IMG/VR virus record: IMGVR_UViG_3300037067_026010
Location: 64,001-128,000 of that record
Length of the DNA stretch: 64,000 nucleotides
Direction: 5' to 3' (one strand)
DNA from: a virus
Lineage: Duplodnaviria > Caudoviricetes
The notes under the pieces were generated by a model, which was not told the DNA's origin, did no database searches, and worked only from the letters and a program-made list of their open reading frames with translations. How positions within the stretch are numbered: position 1 is the stretch's first letter; each line of letters starts with the position of its first letter. Made by a program: the position numbers and the translations under genes. This document shows positions 2,722 to 47,391 of the stretch, one piece after another.

Positions 2722-2943
2722 TCAGCTAAGGACCTTCAGATCCTTTTCGGTAAAGCGGTTTCCACCGCTGGCAGCACCGTCTTGTCGGACGATGGCGAAG
2801 GGCCCGACCGTGCATTCGGGCGAGTTGCCTTGCCAATCCGTATAAGACGTATTGTCCAGCGCCGTAACTACACCAGTTGTCTTACGAAACTGGCTGTTTT
2901 GGCTCATGACACGAACGCGTTGCGCGACACTGGGAAGCGACAT
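2722..2943 (-). CDS. Small hypothetical protein (73 aa)
   Basis: GGAGGT RBS; fits the gene spacing. Confidence 0.6.
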   Translation of the reverse strand: MSLPSVAQRVRVMSQNSQFRKTTGVVTALDNTSYTDWQGNSPECTVGPFAIVRQDGAASGGNRFTEKDLKVLS

Positions 2944-2961
2944 AATTAAACCTCCATGTTT

Positions 2962-3327
2962 TTAGCGTGGTGTGAGCATAAACTCCGGCCGTGGTTGCCG
3001 GAAACCTCTGCGGGCGCGTGCCTGCCGTACCCGTTCCGCTTGGAGCTGGTAAGCCTGCATGAGCTCGCGGCGCTTTTCGTCTTCAACATCTGCCTCGGGC
3101 TCGGTTGCCTTTGCCGCGAGGTACCCGCCGCCGGCGCCGACGCCGATGGCACCAAGCATGCCAGCCGTCGTAAGACCGTAAGCAGTATTCGCCAATTCTT
3201 TCCAAAAACCGCGTTTCTCCAATAGGTCCACGGCGGTCTTGGCACGTGCTACCGTCTCTTCGGCCGATAACAATTCGTCCGTGCAACGGGCTAAAAATCC
3301 GAACTGGAAAGCTTCGTGCGGAGTCAT
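2962..3327 (-). CDS. Putative virion protein with a Gly-rich hydrophobic helix
   Basis: 121 aa; contains KTA and EKRG motifs and GMLGAIGVGAGGGYL. Confidence 0.6.
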   Translation of the reverse strand: MTPHEAFQFGFLARCTDELLSAEETVARAKTAVDLLEKRGFWKELANTAYGLTTAGMLGAIGVGAGGGYLAAKATEPEADVEDEKRRELMQAYQLQAERVRQARARRGFRQPRPEFMLTPR

Positions 3328-3336
3328 GGCGTGTCC

Positions 3337-3885
3337 TTAAATATCCAAGAGGAGGCCTGTCCTATTTTTCTTGCGTGGCGGCCTATGCAGCCGTACGTGC
3401 GAGGCATTTGCCGCTACGGCATCCCGGACGGCGTCCGGTGTAGCCGTTCTGCCGGTAAATTTTCCGCGCGGCAGACTTGGCAACTGCGGGTAACCAGCTG
3501 CGTCACTGCCGGCGCTGAGCGACACCGTAGCGTTGCGTCGATGTTTTGTCCAGTACGCCTGGATTGCCGGGTCGCTCGGGTCGCCCATAAATCGCGCTTC
3601 TTTGATCGTTTCCGACAGGTCGTTCGCGGCCTTTTCGCAGAGGCGAGCTTCTTCGCGCATCCACGGACTGTCGTCCGCCGCAATTTGCTTTGCGAACTGG
3701 CCCAACGCCCGCACACGTTCGAGGGCCTCCGCAGGGGTAATAACGCAATATTCATGCTCTTGCTTATTCTCGCGTTCGTCGTACATCGCGAGGAGGCCCT
3801 CGCACGCAAAAAATACAAGCTGTTTGTGCCGGCGCAGCGGGCCTTGCCGCGCACCAATGGACCAAGCGGGTTTCTGGGTAATCAC
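3337..3885 (-). CDS. Hypothetical phage protein (182 aa)
   Basis: GTG start with a GGAG RBS, immediately downstream of one copy of the 16-bp palindrome. Confidence 0.6.
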   Translation of the reverse strand: MITQKPAWSIGARQGPLRRHKQLVFFACEGLLAMYDERENKQEHEYCVITPAEALERVRALGQFAKQIAADDSPWMREEARLCEKAANDLSETIKEARFMGDPSDPAIQAYWTKHRRNATVSLSAGSDAAGYPQLPSLPRGKFTGRTATPDAVRDAVAANASHVRLHRPPRKKNRTGLLLDI

Positions 3886-3900
3886 GATAGCGTCTCCACA

Positions 3901-3916
3901 CGGTAATTAAGCACCG
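3901..3916 (+). promoter_or_regulatory. 16-bp imperfect palindrome, copy 1 (CGGTAATTAAGCACCG)
   Basis: Exact copy of a motif seen 7 times in the window. Confidence 0.7.
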
Positions 3917-4022
3917 AACCGTATGCATCTTATCGCATTTCCGACTGCAGAGCCATACGAAAACGGCTGCCGCGGACGAAGCCGGGCAGCCCGTATTTTA
4001 ACGCGGCGCACAGGTCGTAAGC

Positions 4023-4445
4023 CTATACCGGTGGTGCCGGTGGTGCCGGAGGTTGCGGTTGCGGCGCCAAGTTTGGCGAAGGTGGTGGTAAATTTGGCGG
4101 CGGCGGGTAGCTGGCCACGGTGAATCCAACCCATTGTTGGTAGAGCCGCACGAAAACCGCAAGGGCCGCCATAATCGGCGGCAGCAGCTTCTGCAACGTG
4201 CCATGTGCCGCCAACCATTCCGCGTCAATATGGCGCAATGCCTCCCACGACATCCAAGCTACGGCCAGCCAGAAGGATTTCGAACGGAGCAAACCGCTCA
4301 GATGTCTTCGCAGCCGGCGTAACCGGCGCAAGGCAATGCGGTCGGCATCCGCAGTAGTTGATGCACGATATGTCGTTTTTGCCCGACGTCGCTTCCGTTT
4401 AAGCGGATGCGTGGGCGGTACGTCGTGTAGGTGTGGGTCTTCCAT
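4023..4445 (-). CDS. Holin-like two-TM membrane protein with a Pro-rich tail
   Basis: Basic N-terminus, SKSFWLAV helix, second helix LLPPIMAALAVFVRL. Confidence 0.4.
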   Translation of the reverse strand: MEDPHLHDVPPTHPLKRKRRRAKTTYRASTTADADRIALRRLRRLRRHLSGLLRSKSFWLAVAWMSWEALRHIDAEWLAAHGTLQKLLPPIMAALAVFVRLYQQWVGFTVASYPPPPNLPPPSPNLAPQPQPPAPPAPPV

Positions 4446-4454
4446 GACGGCACC

Positions 4455-4964
4455 TCATTTTCGGTTTTGCGGGGCCGGCTGTGCGTACACAGGCTCCCAT
4501 TTACACGCTCCCGCATTACAGGTTTTTCGATAGTATAAAATACGACCTTGCTGTGCGGACGGTACCTTCGCCGGAACGGTTTCCGGTACTACAGCTTTTG
4601 GCAGCACCACTGGCAATTCGCCCGGATCTTGCGAGGCTGCTGGAGGTAACGGCAAATCCGGCACCACGGCATCACCGACCTCTTGTCCGGAGTCCGGAGC
4701 TGGTTTTGGCGGCTGCGGTGCCGGCGTCGGGCGGTCTGTATGCTTTAACAGGATCAACCCCATATCTGTGGCTGCCATGTCAAGATACACAGGATCTACC
4801 ACGATTGGCCCAGGTGTCGGGTGTGGTGTCGGGCTCGGCGTAGGCTGTGGTGCAGGTTGTGGCGTTGGTCGCGGCGGCACAGGCCTCGGACGACGATGAC
4901 AGCCACTTGCCGCAGGCCAAGCCAGGGCAAGCATAACGACAATTATGAGACAGCGGTTATACAT
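4455..4964 (-). CDS. Secreted Pro-rich protein with a signal peptide
   Basis: MYNRCLIIVVMLALAWPAASGC signal-like start; PTP-rich linker. Confidence 0.55.
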   Translation of the reverse strand: MYNRCLIIVVMLALAWPAASGCHRRPRPVPPRPTPQPAPQPTPSPTPHPTPGPIVVDPVYLDMAATDMGLILLKHTDRPTPAPQPPKPAPDSGQEVGDAVVPDLPLPPAASQDPGELPVVLPKAVVPETVPAKVPSAQQGRILYYRKTCNAGACKWEPVYAQPAPQNRK

Positions 4965-4975
4965 GGCACACTCCC

Positions 4976-6643
4976 TTATCCGAACACCTTTTTGGGAAAT
5001 CCAAAAGTGGTAAGTTTCAGCAATGGCCAGCCTTCCACGAAACTGGTCGTGAAGCAATCCCCCTGTTGAAGGACAGGCTGAATGTATCGCGCCGCCGGCA
5101 TCCAGGCGCCACAAGCGGCATAGCTATCGGGTACGTCGAATGGCCCCTTGGGGCCGGAGACGTGGTTGCCGTGGCCTGTGTTGGCCACCCAGAAATATTG
5201 CGGTGCGGCCTTGCCGTCGTAGCGTACCCCGGTGATCGTCATGCAATGCGCACCGCTCTTGAAGCGATTCGCTACGCCGTTGGCATCCCGAGAAAGCCCC
5301 CAGGTGGTGTAGCCGCAATACTGAATGGCGTAACCGGATTGAACCAAGGCACCGGCGGCTTGAATATCGGTTACGGCCACGCGGTCGCGGCAGCGATGCT
5401 CGACCGCGTACTTTTCGAGGGCGTCCGGTACACCGTTGCCACCCTCGCCCCAGGACTTCGCCCTGCTGCCGCTATATCCTGCACTCAAATCCATTTCCGG
5501 ATAGGCAGAGTAATACAGGGTACCGTACTTCTCCCACGCCCGCATCGCGTCGATGCCAGCCATTCCCATGCCGTGGTAGCGATAGGAATTGAACAGCTCA
5601 CATTTACCAAAACCGTAAATACTTTCGCGGCAGATCAGTGCATCCGGTTTACGCACTTTGCCTGCCAGAGCAAATACGGCAAGGATAACATCCCCTAAAT
5701 GGCCACTCCCCCAAGAGACGCAGTTGGATACGGCAATACCGTTAGCAATAAAGGAATGATCTTCCTCAACCTCCAGGCAATACACCGAGATATTCCTGAC
5801 GGTGCTTCGGGTAATTCGCCGTATACTCCGAGCCAGCCCTTCGGCAGTTACGATCCGTTTACTCGGGCGTGTTGTCACCGCCGCTGCCTGCAATTCCGGG
5901 TAGACGGCAAGGGTAGATTCCCCGCCAAGATTAACCTCCCAGGCTGGTTTCCAGGTAGTGGCATGTGCATCTTGCCGTGTACGACACCGCAGTTTTGGCT
6001 GTAAGCGGCATTGTAACGCGAGGCGGCACACGCCACGGGCCAGTGACGGGCTAGCCAAGGTTTCTGAAACATCGTAAGATTTTTTATCCAAGTATCCGTG
6101 CGGGATTAAAACACGGTCGCCTACGCACAGTTCTCCGGAAGGCCGCCATGATAGTTCCTGCGTCGTCGTGCTTTGCCCTCCTGTTAGTTTGGCGGAAGGG
6201 GTTCCAGCATAAACGACGTACTTGTGGTCTGGCGTCGATGTGAGTCCACCGAAGTGCCCGGTTACCTCTGTTGTCACCAGTTCGCCAGAGTAAGGTTTCT
6301 TGATCGTTCGCAGAACACGGCGCACGTGATTATTATGCGTAATCACGTATTCGCCGACGCGAACTTCCTCAATAGCACGCTCTGTGCCATCCGCCATCAA
6401 TACACGAGTGCCTGCAACGTGGCAGTCTCCTGTACCCTGGAAGCCGTACTTCCAATTGGGCCAAAGCTCGAACAGCGCATTCCACAACACCGTGTCCTGG
6501 TGTTCGTCGGCGCCAATGATATACGGCGCGGCTTCCATGATGTTGCGCCGCGGTATAGCCGCCGATTCCGGCGTCAAATGGTAGCCGTAATTGCGTTGAT
6601 TTTCCGGTAGATTATTCAAACTGTCTAAATATTCAGTCGACAT
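4976..6643 (-). CDS. Papain-like (C1-type) cysteine peptidase interrupted by an intein
   Basis: Start MSTEY with a GGAGG RBS. The spliced product reads QGTGD|CVSWG (oxyanion Gln plus catalytic Cys), then GAHCMTITG (His) and YFWVANT (Asn). Confidence 0.8.
   Translation of the reverse strand: MSTEYLDSLNNLPENQRNYGYHLTPESAAIPRRNIMEAAPYIIGADEHQDTVLWNALFELWPNWKYGFQGTGDCHVAGTRVLMADGTERAIEEVRVGEYVITHNNHVRRVLRTIKKPYSGELVTTEVTGHFGGLTSTPDHKYVVYAGTPSAKLTGGQSTTTQELSWRPSGELCVGDRVLIPHGYLDKKSYDVSETLASPSLARGVCRLALQCRLQPKLRCRTRQDAHATTWKPAWEVNLGGESTLAVYPELQAAAVTTRPSKRIVTAEGLARSIRRITRSTVRNISVYCLEVEEDHSFIANGIAVSNCVSWGSGHLGDVILAVFALAGKVRKPDALICRESIYGFGKCELFNSYRYHGMGMAGIDAMRAWEKYGTLYYSAYPEMDLSAGYSGSRAKSWGEGGNGVPDALEKYAVEHRCRDRVAVTDIQAAGALVQSGYAIQYCGYTTWGLSRDANGVANRFKSGAHCMTITGVRYDGKAAPQYFWVANTGHGNHVSGPKGPFDVPDSYAACGAWMPAARYIQPVLQQGDCFTTSFVEGWPLLKLTTFGFPKKVFG
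5723..6424 (-). mobile_element. Intein (234 aa) with a remnant of a LAGLIDADG endonuclease
   Basis: Block A CHVAGTRVLMADG, block B TSTPDHKY, block F VYCLEVEEDHSFIANGI, terminal SN followed by +1 Cys. SPSLARGVCRLALQC resembles a late homing-endonuclease block. Confidence 0.92.
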
Positions 6644-6645
6644 AC

Positions 6646-7095
6646 TTAACCTCCTGCCGCCCAGGCAAATGCCTGATAGCATTCGATGACTTTGTTGCGC
6701 CGCTCCGGCGTAATCGGCCCGGGGTCGTCGCCGGCCCACTTCAACATGGCACTGTTCATGGCGTCGCTTAATCCCGGCACGGGCTTAAATTCAGCGCCAA
6801 AACGCAGATTGGCGACATTGTCGTTGTAAGCGCTTAACGTACCGGCGTCTTTGATCAAATTGCCGGCGTCGCGCTGAATCATCGCCGCCGTCGCAAGGCA
6901 GTAATTGGCAAATTCGATGCGTTGCGGGTGTTCCGCCATATCCCGCTTGATTCCGGCGACGAGCGTTTGCAGCTCCGCCACGGGTTCGGAGACGACGGAC
7001 GCCGTCGATGATTCTACGATATAAGGCGCTGCAAACGGCGCGCCGACGCCGACGACGATTAGGATTGCTAAAACCCAATTTAACAATGGTTTCAT
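6646..7095 (-). CDS. Membrane-anchored or secreted hypothetical protein
   Basis: N-terminal hydrophobic helix followed by a helical domain. Confidence 0.65.
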   Translation of the reverse strand: MKPLLNWVLAILIVVGVGAPFAAPYIVESSTASVVSEPVAELQTLVAGIKRDMAEHPQRIEFANYCLATAAMIQRDAGNLIKDAGTLSAYNDNVANLRFGAEFKPVPGLSDAMNSAMLKWAGDDPGPITPERRNKVIECYQAFAWAAGG

Positions 7096-9154: not shown

Positions 9155-10315
9155 TCAACCCCCGAAAAGCGATCCGACGATGCCGCGGATCATACCGCCC
9201 CAGAGACCCATCGTTTGTAGCTTTTCCTGTGCAGCCGGTGTCAGCCCGCCAAGGGCACCCAAGACGCCGCCAACGACGTGTGCCGTGGCAAGATCCACGC
9301 CAGCCGTCGCCAAGCCTTTGATGAAATGCTTTGGATTTAAATACTCTGGTCCACCGTATTGCGCCCCGATCCCACTGACGACCCCGGAGGCTGCCGCGGC
9401 CATCGCAGGCGGTGTACCCATCGGCTGTTCGTTCGTACCCCAAGGACTCTTCGTACCGTAAGGGTTGCTCCTCGCCGCCGAGTAATTGCCCACGTCATTC
9501 CAAATGGCCTGATTGAAAGCGTCCAGCGGCACGGCCGGCAGATTCGCCGCACCCGTTTCGCCGTAGCGTTCAGCAACTTTACGCATCCACGGGTCGCTAG
9601 GGAACTCGCGCAGGGCTGCGGCTGCCTTATCGAGAATGTGGTTTCTGCTGGTCTGAATGCGGTCGTTTTCCAGTTGCGCCTGTATGGCGGGATCCTTCGG
9701 CAAGGAGTTGAGCGACGATAGCCAACCGCGCGTCCAACCGACCGGTTTGCCTGATGCATCTTGCATCCTGGCGCGTGCCGATGCGGTCCAAATACCTGGA
9801 ACTGCCCCAAGACCTGCGCCGAGAAGTCCTAATGTTTTACGCAGCTTGCCTCGCCGCAGATATCGCTCCGGAAAAAGATGCTCCAGCATTGCCCCGGCAC
9901 CGTAGCCCAGGCCCCCTGCCAGTAAGCCGCCGCCCAGGGTCGTCGCCAAGGCATTGGGGCTTTCCCATGCCGCCTTATAGAACGGATTGAAAGATATGCC
10001 CAGTGCGTTTGCACGCTTGATATGCACCCAGTCGTCGCGGTTCGGTGGATGGCACTCTGCGACTACTTCAACGGTCTTTACGCCTGGCACCGCTTGCAGA
10101 GCATTATGGTATTTATTGTATACCGCCTGATCGTCGCCGTCGCTCAGCACTGCATGCACGGCCTTGTCTTCGGGATGCCAGAATAGATAACCGTAACCCG
10201 GATCGGCAGCCGGCGGAAGCTTTTGCAAAACGCGGCGCAAGCACATGACCTCGCCGGCCGCCTCCTTGACGAGCTGCGATACGCGTGCCGGTACGTCCTG
10301 CCAAGTGATGCTCAT
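9155..10315 (-). CDS. Putative virion protein with K-x-A motifs and Gly-rich hydrophobic helices
   Basis: 386 aa; KEAA, KRAN, KAAW, KAAA, KVAE; GGGLLAGGLGYGAGA. Confidence 0.6.
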   Translation of the reverse strand: MSITWQDVPARVSQLVKEAAGEVMCLRRVLQKLPPAADPGYGYLFWHPEDKAVHAVLSDGDDQAVYNKYHNALQAVPGVKTVEVVAECHPPNRDDWVHIKRANALGISFNPFYKAAWESPNALATTLGGGLLAGGLGYGAGAMLEHLFPERYLRRGKLRKTLGLLGAGLGAVPGIWTASARARMQDASGKPVGWTRGWLSSLNSLPKDPAIQAQLENDRIQTSRNHILDKAAAALREFPSDPWMRKVAERYGETGAANLPAVPLDAFNQAIWNDVGNYSAARSNPYGTKSPWGTNEQPMGTPPAMAAAASGVVSGIGAQYGGPEYLNPKHFIKGLATAGVDLATAHVVGGVLGALGGLTPAAQEKLQTMGLWGGMIRGIVGSLFGG

Positions 10316-10572: not shown

Positions 10573-11313
10573 CTACGGGCTGCCGGTTGTGGCCGCACAT
10601 ATTTCTGTTGTGTTCGCATGGGTGGTAAAAGTGTTAATAGAGGGGGATAACCAGTCCGGAGCGCGTCTTGCCGATAATAATTCCGGATCTATGTTACGAC
10701 ACTGTTTGTGTAAGCGGCTTACCGCTGCTCGGATTAACGCATTCACGTAATGCCGCGAGCATTGCAATTCTTGCGTTATCTCGCCACGCGACATGCCGGC
10801 CAGCCGCATTTCGAGAGCCTGGCGCTGCCGAAGCGACAGCCTGGTAACCGCAATGCGGAAAGCGTGCCGACTTTCCTGCTGCAAAAGACGGCGTATCGGC
10901 GGATCCTCGTACCAGCCCTGTACCGAGGTTGCATAAATTTGCCGGGGCGGCCGGCGGCGACTGTTTGGCCTGCGGACATACTGTTCCGTGCCTTGCTGCT
11001 TCCTGGCGTTTTGAATGGCCTGGCGAATCCAATAGGCTGCATAATTTGCAAAACGGTGTCCCCGACCCTCCTGCCAGCGTTCGATAGCCACTATCAGCCC
11101 CAAGATGCCGTCTTGAAAAAGATCTCGTAGAAGTTCACGAGGTTGTCGCAGGCCGCGGGCTATGTGCCAGACAAGACGCTGATTGCACAAAATAAGTTGC
11201 TCTCTAGCCTTGCCACAACCGTTGTGGGCGGCCCGTAGATAGGCTAATTCTTCGTCCGCCGTCAAAGGCGTTGCCGTAGTCGCATTATCGAAGACGCACT
11301 TCCCTGCCGTCAT
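10573..11313 (-). CDS. Sigma-70 family RNA polymerase sigma factor (regions 1.2, 2 and 4)
   Basis: PLTADEE, AREQLILCNQRLVWHIAR, DLFQDGILGLIVAIERW, RFANYAAYWIRQAI, C-terminal HTH LSLRQRQAL...GMSRGEITQEL. ATGA overlap with the upstream gene. Confidence 0.9.
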   Translation of the reverse strand: MTAGKCVFDNATTATPLTADEELAYLRAAHNGCGKAREQLILCNQRLVWHIARGLRQPRELLRDLFQDGILGLIVAIERWQEGRGHRFANYAAYWIRQAIQNARKQQGTEQYVRRPNSRRRPPRQIYATSVQGWYEDPPIRRLLQQESRHAFRIAVTRLSLRQRQALEMRLAGMSRGEITQELQCSRHYVNALIRAAVSRLHKQCRNIDPELLSARRAPDWLSPSINTFTTHANTTEICAATTGSP

Positions 11314-12284
11314 GGTTTTCGCGGTAATTGCGGTAAAAGTTGCACAGGTTCGTGTTGCAACAGGCGATCGACCGGGTGCTGGACCATAGCGGACCCTCCG
11401 GCCAGATATGCCTGCGTCTGCCGTATCGAGCGTTGCGGATCCATCGCATTCTGCATCCGGTCCCACGTTTTGGCTTCGGCGATCGCCCTGTCGCCACGCT
11501 GTTTTATCGTAGCCGCGTGACGTTGTAAAGCGCCGAGTAGTCCTTCACCGGCGTTATAAACCGGTTTGCGTCCGCGCAGCAGCTCCGCCCCATGTCCGCG
11601 CGCTGCCTCGGCGTAGAAACTCTGCGCCGCTTTTACCGGTGCGGGCGGATTCAAAAAATCTTCAACGTCGCCAACGGTTTTCAGCCTCGTTGCACTGTCC
11701 GGATCAATATCGAGATCGATCCAATGCTCCGCCAGTTCCGACGGATCCGCGCCGTAATCTTTCGCGTAGTCAGCTTCGCGATAGACCTGATCCGCCGGCA
11801 CATTAAATCGCTGCATCAGCAGTCGCTGCAACGCCTTATTTTGCAATGGCGTCTGCTCCAGCGTCACCGCCGGCTTATTCGATACCAAATCGGATACGGC
11901 CCCGAGGGCGATGTCGTCCGCCGCGCCGGTCGCCAAGGCCATCGGCGATTTCAATAGGCCGAGTACGCTTGTTTTAGTCAGCGTTTTGGAGATATCCGCC
12001 GGTACATGTGTCTTGGGCAGATGAAAGCGATAGCCGGTCGGTCGATGGGTAATGCCATAGAACCGCTGCAGCTCCTCGTCGATGTACCAGTTTTCCGGAT
12101 TGGAAAGCATCAACTTGCGCAGCTGCGCGCTTTTGGCGGCATAAGCACGGTTGTCGGAGAGCTGCTGAATAAACTGTAGCTGCTCAAGAAGTGGGTGCCC
12201 TGCATCGGGCGGCAGTGCGGCCGTTTTCACAAAAGCCGCCGCGCACGCTTCTACTGCGGCACATTCCATAATGGTGCATGCCAT
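11310..12284 (-). CDS. K-x-A-punctuated protein containing a degenerate acyl-carrier-protein-like domain
   Basis: KTAA, KTS and KAA motifs. The internal segment LQRLLMQRFNVPADQVYREADYAKDYGADPSEL...IDPDSATRLKTVGDVEDFL follows the ACP pattern. Confidence 0.6.
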   Translation of the reverse strand: MACTIMECAAVEACAAAFVKTAALPPDAGHPLLEQLQFIQQLSDNRAYAAKSAQLRKLMLSNPENWYIDEELQRFYGITHRPTGYRFHLPKTHVPADISKTLTKTSVLGLLKSPMALATGAADDIALGAVSDLVSNKPAVTLEQTPLQNKALQRLLMQRFNVPADQVYREADYAKDYGADPSELAEHWIDLDIDPDSATRLKTVGDVEDFLNPPAPVKAAQSFYAEAARGHGAELLRGRKPVYNAGEGLLGALQRHAATIKQRGDRAIAEAKTWDRMQNAMDPQRSIRQTQAYLAGGSAMVQHPVDRLLQHEPVQLLPQLPRKP

Positions 12285-12381
12285 GGTTGTCCCGTTCCTA
12301 AAATGAAACCGGCGGCACGGAAACCGGCCGCCGGATTCGGACGTTCTTCCACAAATTGACGGGATCCATCCCGCTACACGC

Positions 12382-12876
12382 TTACGCTTCCGGCGTAGTC
12401 GGAGTTTCCGGGACGGTTGGTGTTTCCGGGACGGTTGGCGTCTCCGGAGTAGCCGGAACTTCGGGAGTTTCCGGCGTGGTTGGCGTTTCCGGCGTTGCCG
12501 GGACTTCGGGAGTCTCCGGAACTGTCGGAGTTTCCGGCACAGTCGGCGTGAGATCACGCTCGGTAATCTCGCCAGACTGCACGCCAAGGTTGACGGCTTC
12601 GCTTGCCACGACGGCAATGTCGTAAGTGCCGACGAGCGGGCGTTCGCCGAGGCTCATATCCGCATCGGCGGTAACGACGATTTGGGCCGTGCCGAGACTG
12701 CCGGTCGTTACGGCAAGACAGCTGAGGCCGTCTTCGGCAGGCTGCAGAACGAGAATGCCCGGGTCGGATCCTTGGATCGCCCAGGCCGGTACGCCATCAA
12801 TCCGCGCGGGGTTACCGACGGCATCGACGGGCCTGATGGACAACGGAACTTGCTGGATGTCAGTAAGTTGTAACAC
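12382..12876 (-). CDS. Beta-rich (Ig-like) structural protein with a C-terminal PETPT repeat tail
   Basis: GTG start with an AAAGGAG RBS 7 nt upstream; domain LQLTDIQQVPLSIRPVDAVGNPA...GTAQIVVTADAD. Confidence 0.6.
   Translation of the reverse strand: MLQLTDIQQVPLSIRPVDAVGNPARIDGVPAWAIQGSDPGILVLQPAEDGLSCLAVTTGSLGTAQIVVTADADMSLGERPLVGTYDIAVVASEAVNLGVQSGEITERDLTPTVPETPTVPETPEVPATPETPTTPETPEVPATPETPTVPETPTVPETPTTPEA
12385..12548 (-). repeat. Coding tandem repeat of P-E-T/P-T-V type triplets
   Basis: PTVPETPTVPETPEVPATPETPTTPETPEVPATPETPTVPETPTVPETPTTPEA; synonymous codons vary between copies. Confidence 0.85.
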
Positions 12877-13023
12877 GTCAAGACTCCTTTGCGATGGGTG
12901 GACATTCGAAACGGGTCCAGCTACCCATTTGAACCGGACCGCGCGCGGTCGTCTGAATTTGTGCATAGGTAGTTCCTCACTTGACCAGACAGCCATCGTT
13001 GTACCGCATCCGTACTACGCTGT

Positions 13024-16000
13024 CTAGGGCGTCCAGTCCTCGTGCGGCGCCAGCAATACCGGCGCGCGATGCGCACCTGAAGCAAACTGGCCTTGCGAGC
13101 GAATTTTCGCAACGCGGCCGCGATAGATATCCGGCTCTCGCCATAGCTCGCGCCGCAGCTCGTCCGAGATTCCCGTACCGACTCTGCCGACGGTTTTACC
13201 GCCAGGCGTCAGCGCGTACTCGAAACCGCCGGCGCCGATGCCGCGGTACTTGCCGCGTCCGGGATAAACGCCGGTAATGTGCACATCAGATTCTTCAAGC
13301 AGCTTGCCTTTCTGCGGCACGCCTGTTGCCGGATGCAATACGATGCCCTCTCGCGTCAACGGGTGCTTGCTGCTGCGAATGCGATCCCACAGCTGTTGTG
13401 CAGATTCGGGCGTTTCCGCAGCCTCCGAAAGATGGAAGTAGTCCGCAGGCAAATGCGGCAGTACTTGCTCTAGGAGTTTGCGGCGCTCGGCGCGCGGTAG
13501 ATCCTGCACGGGTTGTTTGCCCAACTGTGGAATGTCGTACAGCATATTGCGCAACTGGATATTCCCGGCGCGCTGCTTTTCCAAGGCATTAGCGACGGTA
13601 GCATTGAGAATACCGCCCAATTCGTGCGCCGGCAGCACTTCGGGTTTCTTGCCTTCAGGATTTCGAAGTCCGTAAAGCTCGCCTTTCAATACCGTGCCTC
13701 GTAAGGCTTTCGGGATCGGCGTGGACGGCCTGCCACCAAACATTCGCTCGGAATATACGATAGGCTGGCCATTGTTTTTTGCCGTACGATACGAGGTCAC
13801 TTCGATACCGTCCTTGAGCAATTGCACGAGGCTGCTGGCACCGTCTACTTTGGCTTCGGCGGTCGACCCCGGCTGCATTTTGGCGAGAACGTTCTCGATC
13901 TGCTGCGCGGGTATTTTTTTGAAGTGGACTTTTTCGTGCTGTGCTCCCACCGGCACCGTCGGCGTCGTATTGACGAGTAGCCAGTTCTTCGATTTCGGAT
14001 CGCGCGGTTTGAGCAGTACGAACCGCTCCGGAAAGCGCGCGCTTGCTTGAGTAAAATGCACGGCGTCCGGTGTGACCTTCGTAATCAGCACTTGCCCCTC
14101 TTCCGCCTTCGAGACCGTGCCTTCTCCATAACCTTTTTCTATCCGGCCCTCGAAATCTTTGTAGCTATAGTCGTGCAGCGGTTGATGTACCGCGAGCCGT
14201 TTCTCGCCCGGTTTGGGCATCTCCTTGCGCATGGCCCAACTGTGTAGGCCGGAGGGGTCGCCGATTCGCAGATCAAAGTGCCGTTTTGCCCGTGCCGCAT
14301 CGTGCAATTGCCGCAGCAACGTGTAAACGTTTCCGGCCCGTAAATCCGTCAGTGGCTCTCCGTAATTCGACCGATCCGGTAAACCTGGAATTGGCGCTGC
14401 AGTCTTTGCCAGCGCGGGGGAGGGCGTTTGCACGAGTTCCAACATGCGCCGTAACAATTGCTGTCTGTCCTCGCCCTGAATATTTTTCAATGCCGCTGCG
14501 TCCCGATTTTCCGGAGTGACTTTTGCCGGATCAATCTTGCCATCGGCTGGTGCGGCAATCTGAGTCTTTTGAAGCCATGCATTCCAGGCCTTGTCCGCAG
14601 CTTCAGGCGTATCCACCTGTTGGCCGGTGGCTTTCACGTACTGCCGTTTGGCCTCGGCAAGGCGCGGATCGAGCTCATTTGGCGTGCCTGCGTAGGCATA
14701 TCGGCTTTCAGCCGTAGGCGCCAGCCACAGCCCTCGAGCGTTGTTGGCAGCGAAAGGCAGTCCTTCCGGTTTGGCCCGCTCCACCGGTATAAGCGGCGTA
14801 GTCGCTTCCTCGTCCGATTGCCGCAAGTAGTTTGGTCCCAAGGCCGCATGCGTTAATTCGTGCTCCAAGAGCGCTTGAGGTGCGCCAGGCGCCAGACTGA
14901 CTGTGCCCGTGCGGTGGTCCATCATACCCTGTCTACCGACCAGTGGCGTGTCCTTGGTGCCGGCGATTTCCTTATCCAGCGCCGACGGACGCCACCGACT
15001 AAAGCGTGGGTTATGTCCTGGTACTGCCAATTGTGCCTGTGCTTTCTGCACGGCCGCGTCGAGGCCACCCGGAGCTTTCGCATAATAGGGTGCAATTTGC
15101 TGTCGCAGCGTTGTCGTAAAATCCTTCGGCGCCGGCGTCACCGTTGCTCCGGCCGGGGGTACAACGGCCGGCTTGGCACCGGCGCCTGTCGGCCCCTTCA
15201 CCGGGGCCGCGGTACTGCTGGGAGTACCATTGCCAGAGGCAGGCGCAGCGCTGGCCCCTTCCGTTGCCGGAGCTTTTGGCGTAGTTGCCTCGGCAGCGGT
15301 TTTGGCCGACGGTTCGGCATTGCCGGTAGGCCACCACGCTTCAATGGCCAAATGCTGGTATGTCTGCCCGTCATATTCGCGATTACGCCAGCGCTTTTCG
15401 AACTCCGCAACCGACAGATAGCCATATTGCTTGCGGTCCCCGGCCATGGCGGGATCGGCAAAGTAAACGCTCTCGTCATCCATGCCGATGACGACGCTGT
15501 AGTGGCCGCTCTGCAGCTGCTTATAGTCCGCAGGGTCTCCCCAGGCTTGCAGCGAGACGATGACCGGATGCCGCTTATCGAGAATAGCACGCAACCCGGC
15601 GAGATCCAGGTTCTCGTGAAAGAGCACCTCCAACCCGAGCTTCCGTGCCGTTTGCACAAGATCCTCCGGATCCGTGCCCTTCTGCTTGCCGCTTTCCGAA
15701 CGTTCCGCCAATTGCGCTTCGGTGACGCTCAGCCCGTTGCCTTCCGCCACTTCGCGTAATGCACCGGGACCGCAGGTGCAATCGGTCTGCTGCCGAAGAT
15801 GCGGTACAGGCGCTTGGACGTTTGCGTCTCGCATGCCGATCGGTTCTTCGGCATCCTCGGGGCCGCGCGCCGACGGGCCGTTGCCGTCAGCTGCTGCGGG
15901 TCCGCCGTGGCTACCGGGCATCAGATTCTGATCTAAGGGCACTTGATCGGCCTGTCGGGTAACGCGGGTGCTGGTCATTCGCGGATCGTCCGTGCACATC

Positions 16001-16520
16001 TTGCTATCCAGGGCCGCCGCCTTCGTAACCTTCCCATCCTTGGTCCAATCGCCGAACTCGGCGAGCGTCATTGCCGTTACGCTGCCGAGACCCTTCCAGC
16101 CCTTCGAGTAGTTCGCCAGATAGACCTGCCGTGCTTCGTCCTCCGACAGACATCGATAATGCATTTGTGCTCGTCGAACTTGCCGGTGGCCGGAGCGTTC
16201 TGGTTGACGACATGCACCAGCTCGCTTTCCAGATGCGGACCTATGAAAACATCTAAATGGTCTTTGTCGCGGCCGAGGATGCCCTTGAAATAACCATAAT
16301 CGTTGGCCATGGTTATAGACCAGGTTTTGCCGTTCCTGTCCGTGCCGGAGCGTTCGCTGCCCTTGGGATTTTCGATGGCTATGCCAAAACCGGCCCAAGA
16401 AACGTGCCCCTTCGCATAATTACCGGCTTCGATCTGCCCCGGCGTGGGCTCGGTATTTACGGCGGCGCGGGCTTGCCGGAGTTCTTTTTCGTCCAACGCT
16501 CTCTTTTCGCGCACCAGCAT
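13024..16520 (-). CDS. Polyvalent protein (InPase + C39-like peptidase + zincin HEXXH + LigD 3'-phosphoesterase + ATP-dependent DNA ligase) with a 1-nt frameshift at ~16154
   Basis: InPase: GNYAKGHV...IENPKGSERSG...DYGYFKG..GRDKDHLDVFIG...FDEHKC. C39: RQQTDCTCGPGAL...GHYSVVIG...FADP. Zincin: LEHELTH. Phosphoesterase: HDAARAKRHFDLRI...HSWA...RLAV..PLH..SYKDFEG.I..GYGEGTV. Ligase: AKVDG, LKGELY, LYDI, EGIVL and OB-fold GRVGTG. Adding one G gives a single 1165-aa frame from ATG 16520. Confidence 0.85.
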
Positions 16521-16537: not shown

Positions 16538-17038
16538 TTAATCCACGGACAGCCAACGCCCCTGAAAGTAGATCGGCTCCCCAAGCTGCGCGATCAACTG
16601 CAGCTCGTTTTGCAGCCAATCCACATGCGCCTCCGTCTCGTCGAGAATTTTCTGCAATACGGCGTAAGTCCCAAAATCCTTGGCTGCCAAGGCTGTCTGC
16701 GTCCAACCCGTATACTGGTTCGCCACCTCCACTTCGCCGTCCAAGTCCTCGGAGAATTGCGTCTTTAAGTTGCCCTCGACCGCCTCGATCACTGACGGAG
16801 CCGTCTTTGGCGCGCCGTCCAGGAAGATCATCCGATCGGCCACCAGCTGCGCATGCCCCCTCTCCTCCGTAGCTTCCTTCTCGTACATCTGCGCCAGTTT
16901 TTTGACACCATTTCCCTGCCAATACACTGCCCGTGCCCAGTAATGATTGGACACCGTCATTTCGGTGTTCAGCGCCTGTTGTAGCACTGTTAATAGTTCG
17001 CCGTTCTGCTGTATCGTCGTTTGCTGCTTCTCGGCCAT
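16538..17038 (-). CDS. bfr: Bacterioferritin / ferritin-like protein
   Basis: LNTEMTVSNHY, EATEERGHAQLVADRMIFLDGAP, DLDGEVEV and ILDETEAHVDWLQNELQLIAQLG match the Bfr four-helix bundle. Confidence 0.88.
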   Translation of the reverse strand: MAEKQQTTIQQNGELLTVLQQALNTEMTVSNHYWARAVYWQGNGVKKLAQMYEKEATEERGHAQLVADRMIFLDGAPKTAPSVIEAVEGNLKTQFSEDLDGEVEVANQYTGWTQTALAAKDFGTYAVLQKILDETEAHVDWLQNELQLIAQLGEPIYFQGRWLSVD

Positions 17039-41851: not shown

Positions 41852-42238
41852 TTATACCTTGTCTATGTGAGTGCCGTCGTCTTCGGCGGCAAAGTATTGT
41901 TTAGGATGTACTGGCACGGTAAATTCCACCAGCGCGATATTGGCGATGTCGACGAGGTGTTCCGCATTGCCGGTCTCGCGATAAGCGTCCAGGTGCTTTT
42001 GCATCCCGGAAATGTTGTCGTAACGCCGAGTCTTTTGCACTTCAAGGGGGCCGTAACGGTAGGCCCCCACGATCAGTCTGTTGCGCATTAGCCGCTCGAA
42101 CTCGGCGTTCCACTGCGTTTGAATAAGCTTCTCGTGGTCCGCATCGCTGACGTGCTCCGGGACCGGCGGGTCCGGCAGGCCGCATTTCCAGCACCAGGCC
42201 GCTGCGAAGAATTCGGAGAGTAACTGCGGTCCGTCCAT
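41852..42238 (-). CDS. Conserved phage helical protein, possibly an all-alpha NTP pyrophosphatase relative
   Basis: FERLMRNRLIVGAYRYG...YRETGNAEHLVDIANIALVEF. Confidence 0.5.
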   Translation of the reverse strand: MDGPQLLSEFFAAAWCWKCGLPDPPVPEHVSDADHEKLIQTQWNAEFERLMRNRLIVGAYRYGPLEVQKTRRYDNISGMQKHLDAYRETGNAEHLVDIANIALVEFTVPVHPKQYFAAEDDGTHIDKV

Positions 42239-42489
42239 AGCTGGCCTCGTCTCGTCGAGATAGCTGCTTCCTGTATTAGATTACCCAGGGCTTCGAGGTG
42301 CTTACCCTTAGTGCCGCCGGACTAGGCAAGTGCCGACGATGCTGCCGAAAAGAAACTATAGCAAACTGCCTGGCAAATTGCCAGCATGTACTTCGCAATA
42401 AAAAACGCGCCCCGGCGCCGGGATGCGTTCGCGGGGCAGGACGAACGCACAAGAACCGGTCACCGGGGCGCACAGTAAGACACGCCGCG

Positions 42490-42517
42490 ATTATAACACA
42501 AGCTATTTTGGGGGCAA
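42490..42517 (-). promoter_or_regulatory. Sigma70-type promoter TTGCCC-N16-TATAAT with an extended TG
   Basis: Near-consensus hexamers; palindrome copy 4 sits directly upstream of the -35 box. Confidence 0.6.
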
Positions 42518-42518
42518 G

Positions 42519-42534
42519 CGGTGTTTAATTACCG
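42519..42534 (-). promoter_or_regulatory. 16-bp palindrome, copy 4 (1 mismatch), just downstream of parB
   Basis: CGGTGTTTAATTACCG on the + strand. Confidence 0.7.
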
Positions 42535-42551
42535 CGTGCTGTCGCGCCGGA

Positions 42552-43424
42552 TTACTCAGCAAACGAGTCCAGCAGCTGGATCAGGTCGCTGATGGTGGCA
42601 TCCACCGATGCTGCGATCGCTTCACGGTCTTTTTTCGCACAACCTTTGTAAAGTCGATCGAATTCCTGCGCGGGCATATCCAGGTATTCTCCTACGCGCG
42701 CCCTGATTTGCTTCATAAAACCCAACAAGCGCACGACATGGTCCTTGGGAGATTGTATGGCACCCACCCTTACTGAGGCGGTTCGCGACGCGCCCATGAT
42801 GAATCGGCGTGCCTCCGACATGCCCATTTTGGCGGCGGTAATGCGCTTTGCCAGCTCCAGTTGCATTTCCTGCGGCAGCGGCACGAGCAATTGCGCCAGG
42901 GAGAACGTCAGCCTACCGCTGCCGCCGGCGCGCTCCCGCTTCTTGTCGCACGGCGCCACCAGCATCGGCCGGATTTCCGGATGCAATCTGCAGAGGTTCG
43001 CGTGCTGCATGACGTAGCACGTCGATTTGCCGAATATCTCGGCGATCTCTTTGACGGTTTTGCCGTGCGCCGAAAGCCGGTTTACCGCTGCGGCGATCTC
43101 CAGGCAGTTGTGTTTCTGCGCGTGAAAATTCGCCATGACGGCGACGGCAAAGCGATCCTCGGGCTCGGGTCGCACGATAACTTCGATAGGTATATTGGCA
43201 TGCAGACAGGCCTGCAGTCTGCGCTCGCCGTCGATCAGCTCGTAGTCGTAGCCCTCCAAGTCGCACGTAGTGACCTCGATCGGCTGACGCTGGCCGAAGG
43301 TCTTGATGCTTCGGGCCAGCTGCGCAATGTTGCGAAAATCGCTTCGCGGTTGCCCGACAAATGGTTTGACGCGCGCAGGGTCTACTGTCGCCAGGCGCGA
43401 TTGCGCCTGCTTTATCTTTTCCAT
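42552..43424 (-). CDS. parB: ParB/KorB-family CTPase with an HTH domain
   Basis: GQPR, LARSIKTFGQRQPI, YELIDGERRLQA, and HTH KTVKEIAEIFGKSTCYVMQ. Confidence 0.88.
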   Translation of the reverse strand: MEKIKQAQSRLATVDPARVKPFVGQPRSDFRNIAQLARSIKTFGQRQPIEVTTCDLEGYDYELIDGERRLQACLHANIPIEVIVRPEPEDRFAVAVMANFHAQKHNCLEIAAAVNRLSAHGKTVKEIAEIFGKSTCYVMQHANLCRLHPEIRPMLVAPCDKKRERAGGSGRLTFSLAQLLVPLPQEMQLELAKRITAAKMGMSEARRFIMGASRTASVRVGAIQSPKDHVVRLLGFMKQIRARVGEYLDMPAQEFDRLYKGCAKKDREAIAASVDATISDLIQLLDSFAE

Positions 43425-43539: not shown

Positions 43540-46500
43540 CCGATCTCCTCGCACACTTCCGCCACGTCGTCTTCGTCGATTTTGAAACTGAGCGTTTGCA
43601 TAAGCTTGCGCGCTGCCTCGTCCGCGCTGACGCCCAAACGCTGCGCCTCGCTATTCACACAGCACCGAAACAGCTCCATTTCACGGTTCGTCAATAAACT
43701 CGCCGCCATGATACCTCTCCTTTCTTGGAAAATAAACACCGATTAGTCGCGCTGCAGCTGCATCACCGTTCACCGCGGGCTTGATATCGGGCCTGTGCTA
43801 TGTACATTCGCGTCTCCGCGCGAATTACGTCACCTACGCGACTATGATCGTCGTTGGCAACGCCCGTCCGTATTTGGGACCCGACCGCCTGATCAGCCTC
43901 GTACAGCTCTGCACTGCCGTCGTACGCTTCCCAAATGGCATCTTCGGCAATAGCGGGCTCCGTACAGACGTGTAAATAAATGATTGTTAGCGATTGGCCG
44001 GCACGCCGTGTGCATTCGGGCAACATCGCGATTTCTCCTTTTGTGGCGCATCAGACCTGAGCAGCGTCGCTGGTCTCCAGTGTCGAGCGCAGTTCTTCGC
44101 AGAATATCTGTATGGGTTCCCAAATGTGCTCCACGACCATCTCCTGGACGTGTATTACAACCGCGGCGTGCACGCTATTCATGCCGGTCTGTCGCTGCAG
44201 GCAATGTACCACTTCGTGCAATTGGCCCGCAAGGTCGGCACGCGTCATGATACTGCCTCCTCTTTTGTGGCCGTGGCCTGCGTTTCGACAGGGTCCCCAA
44301 TCGCGGTAAGCGTCAGCCAGCAGGAATAACTTATACCGCGCCAAATCGTATATTCAACAGCCTGATGCACGAAGTTCGGCCATGGTAACGCCAGCCGCAT
44401 AGCTGTCTCGGCTACACGCAGTTGCCAGGGAATGGCATGTTCGGAGGTCATGGGGCCACCTCCGCCGTCGCAGCCTCGGCCTGAGCGTCAATAGACCTCT
44501 TAATTGCAAACTGCAGCACCCTCCAGCAGGGGACGGCAGCACTACCCCAAATCGTATGATCGACGGCCTGCGAAACGTGCCGGCCCGCAATCGGCACTAC
44601 TGCATACCGGGCCACGTCCAGTTGTGCTTGGATGCTGTCCTTGTGTGTCATAAATACCGCACTCCTTTAGTCCGCGGGAACATCCAGGTCGACATAAGCG
44701 AGGCACACGAGCCGACATATCGCGCCCCAGAATTCCTGCGTAATTGTCAGGCCGCCCGCCCCGCCTTCGATGAAGCCGTGTTCACGCCACGATCGCAACA
44801 CCTCGCGCTCCTCTTTAGAGATGTGCGCCGGCTCTAGTTTCTGCGAATTCATCATCACATGCATAACGTACGGCATCAAACGCAATTCCGTCACGCTGGT
44901 CGCGTAACCGAGCAGCTTTTCCGCCTCTCTTTGCACGCGCGGGGTCAACGCCCCTCGTTTTTGATCCATGATTTGCTCCTGTTGTCGCAGGGTTAGCCCA
45001 GTTCAGGCCGCCGTAGCATTTCGCATATCTGCATTGCAACGCCCACCCGGATGACGTCCTGCATATCTGCGTAGTCGCCCGACACCGGATAATAAGCAAG
45101 ACCCATGACGTCTTCTCTTGTTCGTATGATGCGCCGCGCGCATAGGAACTGAATAGCTTCAGGGACCTGCATATAAACGTACATCAGCCCCGGTTCTACC
45201 ACGCGCTCCAGGCAGAGGTCGCCTACCTGGTACCGGACCTCCTCAAGAATTTGTGTCATCGCCTGCCTCCATGCTTTCACGGGTACTCGCCCGACTTTGC
45301 TCCGCGAGTTGCCTAACGACGCCAGTCCACATCGAAAATAGCTGGCGGGAGCACTGCGCTTGTACGTCGTAACTGGTAACACCGGCGAGCCTAGGCAAAT
45401 ACCTTAGCAGTTCGTTCTCGCTCTGCCGCAACCCGCGCAGGCGCTTATTTACTTTTTTACGTTTGGTCGCCATTTAATTCCTCCAGTATGCAGTCATCCA
45501 TTTGATCCCGTACTGCCCTGGCGATATTGTCCGGATCGTGCGTCGCGTCGAACCGGTCGCGTATTGTGGCACGGACTGCCGCACAGACAGCGTCGCGTGT
45601 GGCAGCCACTAAGGGCGTATCCACGTCGATACGTATAGCTTCGGGAACATGCCCCGCAAACAGCGCCCGCAGGCTGGTGCAAAACCGGTCCTGACACAGG
45701 AATGTGGCTAGGTTCATGTTGCCTCCATTATTGTTTTTCTTCGCGGTGGTCTTCCGCTAATTTCTGGTGCAACTCGTTGATCTGCGCATTCTTTTTGTGC
45801 AGTATCTTGTACAAGCGCGTCAGCTCTGCGCGAGACGCTTTCACGATCCTATTCAACAAAGCAACTGTCTTCTTCGGCAAAGTCAGCATTTCCGTAGCTG
45901 CCACGCCCGCCACAGGTGGATTTGTTGCCAGCCTTGATGCCAGCTGTTCGCGGTATCGATACACAAGCTCCCGCAATTCCGCGGCCATCTTTGCCAAATG
46001 TGGATGCTCCTCCGCGCATTTGCAATAGGTCAGTGCCGCCAGCTGACAGGCGGCAATATGCGCCGGGTCGTCCGCGCTGGCGTTTCCGTCGATTCTGAGC
46101 ACGAAATACATTGCGTCGGGATCCACGGGGCCGCCATCGACTTTAGTGATATTGTAGCGCTGGTGTAACCCGGTCGGGTTGTCTTGGCTTGTAGGCAACA
46201 TATGCAATCTCCTTCAAATTTAATTCAACAGGGCGCATCCACGGCTTCAGGCCTCGGCAACCTATATATCTTGTCGCCTACGATTCGATGCGTCGGTGTT
46301 TCGAACGGTTCGCACGTACGATATTCGCACCCGGCGTCGTCGCTCAGGCGTATCACGCTATCGCTTTGGCACTGGTAGTAGCGCACAACGCGGTTTATCG
46401 GATCGTTTCCGGCCATCTAGCCCCCCTTCCGCTTAATCTGCGCGTGCAATCGTTTGAATTGCCGAATGTTGGCGCGCGTGTGTTTAACTACATCCTTGAA

Positions 46501-47391
46501 ATCCTTCGGGATCTCCTGTTTGAGTTTGGCTCCTCGGTAAACCTCGAAGGTGTTCGCGTCGATATAGGACTCTTCATACTCGATGGCCAGCCGTAGAGCA
46601 TGCAGCATTATCTGGCAGTCACGTTGGTTCATTTTGTTACCTCAGGTCCTCCTCGTCGAATTCTATTGCACTGGCGAAGGCTGGCGAGTACGCGATCATA
46701 TACGCCAGCCGCACTTTCGTTTGCTTTTCAAACCATTCTTCCAAGGTTATTGCGAAGTTGTTCGATGCGCAGATCAACCAGTCGTTTCTGTCGCCGCCTA
46801 AAGCAACGGGACAGTCCGCAGCGCCGCTTAGCAGTTCAGACATAGCGTCACACTGCTCGTAACAACAATGATACATCGCTCCGCATTTCAATATTGCTTT
46901 TGCCAATAGGTAGGCTGCATTGCTGACGATTAACATGCTTCTCTCCTTTTTTCTTTTTTTTAGGTTGTGGGGCGATGCCCTGCGGATATAACGGCCCCTG
47001 CCTGTGCCCTGATCAACCGATAGCCAGGCACCCACGCCTTGATGTGTCCCTCGATCTCGTGTATCGTCCGCATCCCGACGCTTGCCCTGGCACTATCGGC
47101 CAGTTCATCCAGCACACTATGCTCAGCCGCTCTCGGCACTTGGCTCACCAGCAGGTGCATCAAACGGCGGCAGGCATACGAGGCCTTTTGAGCTTGCACG
47201 GCTGCGCGGGCGGTATCGTAAAGCGGCTGCTGCAACTCGAAACCTGCGCTGATCCTGCCTAGTATGAAGGACTTTTGGCGGGGGCCGATACGGCCCGCTG
47301 CTGCCGTACCCACGGCACCGAAATAGTTGTACCATGCCGCCGCCAAGTCATTCCAAAGCGCGTTTAACAACTCCTCTTCCGTTCGGCACAT
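43530..47391 (-). other. Run of about 14 small hypothetical phage genes (e.g. 44667-44969, 45457-45717, 45728-46207, 46417-46632, 46637-46936, 46960-47391)
   Basis: Tightly spaced minus-strand ORFs, many with GGAG-type RBSs; no recognisable catalytic motifs. Confidence 0.6.

Follow-up and report, generated by a model that had tools for sequence, protein, structure and literature searches.

A gene for a phage-type polyvalent protein, built on a cassette that joins a LigD-type 3′-phosphoesterase (PE) to an ATP-dependent DNA ligase, was found on the minus strand of a 64,000-nucleotide stretch of DNA from an uncultured virus of the Caudoviricetes (hereafter the window). The window comprises bases 64001-128000 of the single 210,569-bp IMG/VR virus record IMGVR_UViG_3300037067_026010, a genome of 57% G+C with a CheckV completeness of 100% and with most of its genes on the minus strand. 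As in the phage-type polyvalent proteins described previously (PMC5512222), at least two unrelated enzymatic domains are united in one phage polypeptide, here five in the gene as inferred: InPase, a C39-like cysteine peptidase, a zincin-like domain with the motif HELTH (hereafter the HELTH domain), PE, and the ligase with its OB fold (Table 1). InPase (PF18823), a domain characteristic of polyvalent proteins that are packaged in the head (Iyer, Burroughs, Anand, de Souza, and Aravind 2017, J Bacteriol; PMC5512222), is present here, though split by a frameshift. On balance we favor, with modest confidence, the explanation that the cassette heals and seals DNA ends as part of a polyprotein that is cut at K-x-A-A words and carried in the capsid. 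An earlier interpretation made from the letters of the window (the sequence-only reading) had described the same domains as an injected kit, with PE and ligase as a heal-and-seal pair. That pairing and the assignment to the phage-type polyvalent kind agree with our results, and so do the gene borders that it gave, with the stop codon at 13024-13026 and the ATG at 16520, where the gene starts together with its relative P0003 in the alignment.

The PE-ligase cassette

Both enzymes of the cassette keep the catalytic residues of their families. The PE domain has further matches to TIGR02777 (E 2.9e-14) and to the PDB entries 3p4h (7e-13), 3p43, and 3n9b. The invariance of the PE and ligase catalytic residues was scored over 21 cassettes: H37, H45, D47, R49, and H80 of PE are invariant and Y84 is nearly so (alignment A2), and the ligase conserves motifs I, III, IIIa, IV, V, and VI, with invariant K188, E245, D293, E355-G356, K368, K370, and R449. 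For the OB region, weak matches to DNA_ligase_OB_2 are found in relatives, and the fold named in the sequence-only reading is confirmed by the predicted structure. For the AF2 model of the cassette (pLDDT 88.5), the 50 best Foldseek matches consist of ATP-dependent DNA ligases without exception, with 310-390 aligned columns, and the nucleotidyltransferase (NTase) and OB domains align to the T4, human, archaeal, LigE, and LigD DNA ligases with E values from 4e-13 to 1e-10. No RNA ligase is among these 50 matches. Profile searches with PF18823, Peptidase_C39_2, LigD_N, and DNA_ligase_A_M likewise recovered the InPase, C39-like, PE, and ligase calls, and the catalytic residues that were checked align with those of the respective families.

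The cassette is not a LigD system, because the genome is without Ku, Prim-Pol, and Gam. Ku (PF02735) is absent from all 210,569 bp, the Mu Gam match is not significant, and a genome-wide search for Prim-Pol (the LigD polymerase, PF21686) gave no match at E values up to 1, which extends to the complete record what had been said earlier of the lack of Ku and of the LigD polymerase domain. Bacterial LigD, which serves Ku-dependent nonhomologous end joining, has in common with the window protein a homologous PE with the His/His/Asp/Arg/His/Tyr set and an ATP-dependent ligase with an OB domain, whereas the cassette described here is viral, lacks the Prim-Pol domain, and is embedded in a polyprotein. 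Its scores against the NCBIfam LigD models are far below the cut-offs (70.7 against 989, 53 against 895, and 29.3 against 227.75 bits). Neither an NAD-dependent ligase nor a second ATP-dependent ligase was found in the genome. The RNA ligase family PF09414 is not found there and AAA_33 (PNK-like kinase) gives no significant match; RtcB was not part of this search.

The cassette is a recurrent and conserved unit. It measures about 460 residues, and the versions in about 30 protein clusters are 45-55% identical. Complete copies lie in 35 IMG/VR viral contigs, which measure 18-226 kb and in many cases 100-226 kb; in about 10 of these the cassette stands alone (about 465-490 aa), and in the rest it is embedded in frames of up to 2984 aa. 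We scanned 66 cassette-bearing proteins with hidden Markov models built for this analysis and found 2H-SAK (PF22547) in 15, HAD and InPase in 13 each, HELTH in six, and C39 in four. Further partners in the relatives are SNF2, NUDIX, GH24 lysozyme, GNAT, and inteins. An architecture search for the fusion reported in the sequence-only reading thus returns the PE-ligase core many times, but the order InPase-C39-HELTH-PE-ligase is seen in the window protein alone among those examined. No match was obtained when the gene was compared by megablast with GenBank phages and PLSDB plasmids. By tblastn against GenBank phages at E values up to 1e-5, only the C39 part was matched (in three huge uncultured phages), and no close relative of the cassette was found. 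Hint/intein domains or insertions of 100-460 residues break the cassette at more than one site in P0008, P0016, and P0018, and insertions are also found in P0002, P0004, P0014, and P0024. Inteins are typical of enzymes that a phage cannot afford to lose.

A frame break within InPase

The reading frame of the gene is interrupted once. Frame A begins at 16520 and meets its stop at 16077, and frame B is open from 16419 to 13024, so that the longest single open reading frame (ORF) covers 13024-16398/16419; the gene-caller product, P0001, is a protein of 1046 aa that starts at the ATG at 16164 and is without most of InPase. By Pfam, frame A (16520 to 16149) holds positions 2-98 of the InPase profile, frame B (from 16146) holds positions 100-135, and the two bases in between (16148-16147) occupy the place of one expected codon, with one base missing. 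When the frames were joined with an X at the break and aligned by MAFFT to the InPase of five relatives, exactly one residue was missing and all the conserved acidic motifs (ENP, DYGY, DxDxxDVFIG, and FDEHK) were kept. Judged from this alignment, the break is a one-base deletion, because two bases sit where a codon is expected and the joined frames align one residue short. The statement that all five domains lie in one gene has to be corrected in this respect. InPase is in a single frame in all the relatives examined. Downstream of the break there is no further stop or frameshift in 1,040 codons, and the few flanking genes that can be compared with relatives align without breaks. Since nothing else is damaged in about 1,165 codons, the deletion is either a very recent mutation, or a sequence error or an artefact of assembly or population.

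Table 1 Features of the polyvalent-protein gene and its upstream neighbor (window coordinates; residues are those of P0001)
Feature	Coordinates	Strand	Evidence or remark
Whole polyvalent-protein gene, extent inferred from relatives	13024..16520	-	ORF listing and translation; about 1165 codons with the one-base gap bridged
InPase, N-terminal part, profile positions 2-98, frame A	16149..16439	-	PF18823 E 1.5e-39
Frameshift site	16146..16149	-	GTC 16151-16149 ends frame A; TCG 16146-16144 resumes frame B
InPase, C-terminal part, profile positions 100-135, frame B	16039..16146	-	PF18823 E 4.5e-6 on frame-B product
Border word K-A-A-A, residues 48-51	16012..16023	-	InPase/C39 border
C39-like papain-fold cysteine peptidase, residues 101-279	15328..15864	-	Peptidase_C39_2 E 1.3e-12, 49 bits against a cut-off of 24
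Predicted catalytic Cys131; His221	15772-15774; 15502-15504	-	C39-like peptidase
Border word K-T-A-A, residues 288-291	15292..15303	-	C39/HELTH border; followed by an Ala/Pro/Thr-rich linker
HELTH domain, predicted zincin-like metallopeptidase, residues 343-582	14419..15138	-	HELTH motif 14848-14862
Border word K-T-A-A, residues 587-590	14395..14406	-	Directly upstream of G-[IL]-P-D-R, the conserved cassette start
LigD-type 3′-phosphoesterase (PE), residues 592-735	13960..14391	-	LigD_N E 4.5e-14
ATP-dependent DNA ligase NTase domain, residues 753-949	13318..13908	-	DNA_ligase_A_M E 3.5e-9; phrog_114 5.5e-19
Motif I lysine K772 (KVDG)	13849-13851	-	Ligase NTase domain
Ligase OB-fold domain, residues 950-1046	13027..13317	-	Motif VI-like R-A-P; beta strands at model residues 367-456
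Ferritin/bacterioferritin-like gene	16538-17038	-	PF00210 E 4.5e-27; stop 17 nt upstream of the polyvalent ATG

Peptidase-like domains

The PHROG matches of InPase are annotated as minor head protein, virion structural protein, and DarB-like. Next to InPase, the C39-like domain has its best PDB matches in PeiR (8z4h, E 8e-6) and the ComA peptidase domain (3k8u, E 3e-4). Its Gln, Cys131, His221, and Asp, all four of which had been noticed in the sequence-only reading, align to the PeiR residues, and the Cys corresponds to the residue changed in the Cys-to-Ala mutant structure 8z4n. A C39 peptidase in the bacteriocin-processing sense would be fused to an ABC transporter and act on a double-glycine leader, but no ABC transporter domain is present in the protein. 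PeiR, the best solved relative, is a cell-wall endoisopeptidase, and a role of the C39 domain at the cell wall is as plausible as one in polyprotein processing because the PHROG matches of this stretch are annotated as endolysin.

The HELTH domain belongs to a viral family without a name and is predicted to be a zincin-like metallopeptidase. An exhaustive HMMER search returned 98 relatives, nearly all of which keep HE..H; in some the domain makes up a stand-alone protein (about 240-370 aa), and in others it occurs once or repeatedly within proteins as long as 1800 aa. In an alignment of 26 sequences, H96, E97, H100, Y152, E158, and R168 are invariant. Neither Pfam nor PHROG has a family that matches the domain or the 25 relatives searched with it. 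The AF2 model (pLDDT 83) shows a small sheet (strands 61-85), a helix with HExxH (91-109), and E158 on a downstream helix (156-174), so that HExxH lies on the active-site helix after a beta-sheet, as in zincins. Structural comparisons gave weaker results. Foldseek found no PDB match at E values up to 0.001 (E above 0.6), and Z did not exceed 4.1 with VIA-align in its wide mode. Most of the top matches of both searches, weak as they are, belong to zincins, among them VgrG2b, ArdC, lethal factor, Pro-Pro endopeptidase, M1, and minigluzincins. In Atlas, the neighbors (TM ≤ 0.44 by shape and ≤ 0.89 by features) are viral proteins labeled "hypothetical" or clusters of the ArdC, IrrE, or LPD type. 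Thus the motif that had suggested a zincin is real and nearly universal among the relatives, but the assignment to the zincin fold is backed by weak structural matches and by no Pfam or PHROG model.

Border words

The word K-x-A-[AS] is found three times in P0001, starting at residues 48, 288, and 587, and these are exactly the three domain borders; the wider form K-x-[AS]-[AS] likewise has three occurrences there and no more. In 16 of 22 relatives, a K-x-[AS]-[AS] word stands no more than 15 residues ahead of the PE domain, compared with 3.8% of background windows, a contrast whose P value overstates the case in that the sequences are homologous and not independent. K-x-A words flank InPase in each of the six proteins aligned (the window protein and five relatives), and in the relatives they do so on both sides. 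The border word also follows the OB domain in those relatives that continue past it, and it is kept in relatives that have neither C39 nor HELTH. From these positions, the K-x-A-A words are probably protease cleavage sites, and the enzyme that cuts at them probably acts in trans, because relatives without either peptidase keep the words.

In the whole genome, K-x-A-[AS] was seen 63 times against 38 expected. The excess is pronounced in the 40-50 kb bin (17 against 3.6 expected), which adjoins a weak major-head-protein match, and is also seen in the 70-80 kb bin that holds the polyvalent gene (8 against 2.8). Four head-region genes at genome positions 43852-47183 and 51517-53892 (2853-6184 and 10518-12893 of L043) contain three to seven such words each, where 0.3-1.2 are expected, and the observed count was reached in none of 200 shuffles. 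These four genes adjoin the weak major-head-protein match (genome positions 42206-43150); no Pfam family is known for any of them, and a Pfam search of eight head-region ORFs gave no match. Since the same word is concentrated in head-module genes, the cutting enzyme may be a head-maturation protease, for which the gene at genome positions 45618-47183 is no more than a guess. Herpesvirus assemblin, which has a fold in common with phage prohead proteases, cuts between A and S in x-A-S; this fits the motif and is only a lead.

Neighboring genes

Gene order around the cassette locus is in common between the window and its closest relatives. Upstream lies the ferritin-like gene, unusual for a phage, which also matches TIGR00754 (3e-21, below the cut-off) and faintly an EncB-type encapsulin cargo. 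A functional tie to the polyvalent gene was considered and rejected, as a ferritin gene stands beside no other cassette locus examined. Like the ferritin-like gene, the other neighbors described here are on the minus strand. Immediately downstream, a 204-aa ORF (12382-12996) lies between the polyvalent gene and its former C-terminal modules; it ends in a (T/V)-P-E-T-P repeat tract, and its matches, to surface proteins, are of low complexity only. The next-but-one gene (11310-12300) consists of two conserved modules, one with ...RGDxAIxEA...MDPxRSxRQ... near the C-terminus. A K-T-A-A word is present in this gene too, as is a stretch that weakly resembles acyl carrier proteins (NCBIfam E 5e-4). 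The gene looks like a fission product of the polyvalent protein, because its modules are fused to the polyvalent C-terminus in the relatives P0009, P0005, L008, L009, and L017. Farther downstream is the gene of a 386-aa protein of no known family (9155-10315). L004 and L006 encode this protein as well, at 47-63% identity and two to three genes downstream of their cassettes, while L011, L017, and L024 have its C-terminal half. The protein may work together with the cassette. The same co-oriented block as the polyvalent gene also contains a sigma-70-like gene (10573-11466; Sigma70_r2 E 8e-15) and a 587-aa ORF with Hint/intein matches (4976-6739).

Possible functions of the gene

According to the favored explanation, PE would remove a 3′-phosphate or a 3′-ribonucleotide block, and the ligase would then seal the resulting 3′-OH/5′-phosphate nick, most probably in phage DNA. 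Accessory modules would have been shuffled around this core in the phage lineage, giving here InPase, the C39-like peptidase, and the zincin-like HELTH peptidase, and InPase would hydrolyze pyrophosphate (PPi) or a nucleotide-like phosphoanhydride. The protein would be made as a polyprotein, cut at K-x-A-A into separate enzymes, and carried in the capsid. We infer enzymatic activity and cleavage at K-x-A-A from the conservation described above, and packaging or injection because InPase is a hallmark of packaged proteins and the border motif is common with head-module genes. The target is presumed to be DNA rather than RNA, and the DNA-ligase fold of the model favors DNA. The coupling proposed in the sequence-only reading, in which InPase removes the PPi made by the ligase, may exist but is not obligatory: InPase accompanies the cassette in a minority of its proteins and is common in ligase-free polyvalent proteins.

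Several observations weigh against the favored explanation. The reading frame is broken within InPase, and a genuine deletion could keep this phage from making the domains that lie downstream. The border-motif statistics rest, as said, on related sequences. No MuF or portal gene was seen among the neighbors of the polyvalent gene, and S78 and S77 prohead proteases have no Pfam match in the genome, so that packaging is an indirect deduction, and the earlier proposal of an injected kit keeps only the indirect support of InPase and the border motif. As the only recognizable ligase of the genome, the cassette could simply be the replicative ligase. Its commonest partners in relatives, the 2H-SAK and HAD phosphoesterases, form a repertoire typical of RNA repair.

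The last two points correspond to two rival functions, and the first to two rival accounts of the gene itself. Because the cassette is the only ligase of the genome, a role in replication is a live rival, in which the cassette would be an ordinary phage DNA ligase for the lagging strand or nick repair, fused by chance and not injected. The stand-alone cassettes of about 10 relatives fit such a role, and so does the absence of an NAD-dependent ligase; jumbo phages commonly encode either the one or the other of these two ligase types, as stated in a 2021 survey (PMC7824862). We nevertheless consider it rather unlikely, since the closer relatives mostly embed the cassette with InPase, peptidases, lysozyme, or SNF2, which are domains without a replication role, and the border motif is common to head-module genes. 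An RNA target is the second possibility, because of the 2H and HAD partners: together with them, the cassette would heal and seal RNAs, for example tRNAs, cut by host ribonuclease defences, much as T4 Pnkp/Rnl1 or the "Swiss Army Knife" RNA-repair proteins do. An AAA_33 kinase-like domain is added in one relative, and LigD PE enzymes are established to act on 3′-ribonucleotide ends. Yet the ligase is of the DNA type with an OB domain and its top structural matches are all DNA ligases, PF09414 is not found in the genome, the window protein is without 2H and HAD, and the 5′-kinase needed for resealing the cuts of metal-independent RNases is absent here and in nearly all relatives. An RNA-repair kit therefore seems unlikely to us.

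If the deletion were both real and fixed, the gene would be dead: only a truncated InPase fragment of 147 residues would be made, and the rest would be a decaying pseudogene. This is a sizeable possibility, though short of an even chance. The frame switches exactly where one codon is incomplete, and no clear ribosome-binding site precedes the ATG at 16164, the first one in frame B. On the other hand, the long downstream frame is undamaged and every catalytic residue checked is intact; because the comparable flanking genes align without breaks, the lone indel could equally be an artefact of assembly or population. A programmed -1 ribosomal frameshift, which would yield a short InPase fragment together with the full-length protein, is geometrically possible in that the frames overlap by about 340 nt (16077-16419). 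It is very improbable and was rejected: there is no X-XXY-YYZ slippery heptamer at the break (GAT GTC TGT CGG), the relatives examined all have InPase in a single frame, and the break lies within a folded domain and not at a linker.

Discussion

Of the readings weighed above, we keep that of a DNA end-healing and end-sealing cassette in a processed, capsid-carried protein. A more specific version of it can be put forward only tentatively and is, in our judgment, rather doubtful. In this version, the cassette would be a capsid-delivered counter-defence enzyme of large uncultured phages that has so far gone unrecognized, freed by an assemblin-like head protease that cuts after the A of K-x-A where A or S follows. 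After entering the cell along with the DNA, it would, needing neither Ku nor a polymerase, repair 3′-phosphate-blocked breaks caused by oxidative damage or by nucleases of the host defence, and HELTH would be a new viral zincin family acting on host proteins.

The gene can be compared with several known systems. T4 Pnkp with Rnl1 and the "Swiss Army Knife" RNA-repair proteins unite end-healing and end-sealing enzymes. The cassette also has healing and sealing in one unit, and its relatives carry 2H-SAK (so named in Pfam) and HAD phosphatase; in contrast, its NTase and OB domains are of the DNA-ligase type and not of the Rnl type, and the window protein has no 5′-kinase, 2H, or HAD. The phage P1 Dar (DarB) antirestriction system and ArdC are large multidomain proteins delivered with the DNA for protection on entry. 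The resemblance lies in the DarB-like PHROG matched by InPase and in the ArdC metalloprotease domain among the weak shape matches of the HELTH model (Z 4.0). The window protein differs from them in having no methyltransferase, helicase, or ArdC N-terminal ssDNA-binding domain, and its proposed action is the repair of breaks and not the masking of sites.

With respect to the polyvalent proteins cataloged in PMC5512222, the PE-DNA ligase cassette appears to lie outside the described repertoire, and the MuF or portal gene is not seen beside it. The text of that catalog does not mention LigD, and ligases come up there solely in the remark that polyvalent 2H domains are not associated with RNA ligases. 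Nor is LigD or a DNA ligase named as a polyvalent domain in the part of the 2021 jumbo-phage survey used here (PMC7824862). The cassette is thus a recurrent viral unit undescribed in the polyvalent-protein catalog. Both the cassette and the HELTH family seem to extend the polyvalent repertoire known so far, because PMC5512222 lists no LigD or DNA ligase and there is no Pfam model for HELTH.

Phages are known to bring protective proteins along with their DNA, and a delivered break-repair enzyme is not described in the polyvalent catalog (PMC5512222). If the cassette is active and packaged, it would represent a new principle of counter-defence, in which the cut is repaired rather than the site hidden. 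An active cassette would also be a compact, Ku-independent heal-and-seal DNA ligase and a possible reagent. The HELTH domain defines an unannotated family of viral metallopeptidase-like proteins, and the conserved K-x-A-A borders amount to a cleavage code that can be tested directly in a group of large phages not yet cultured.

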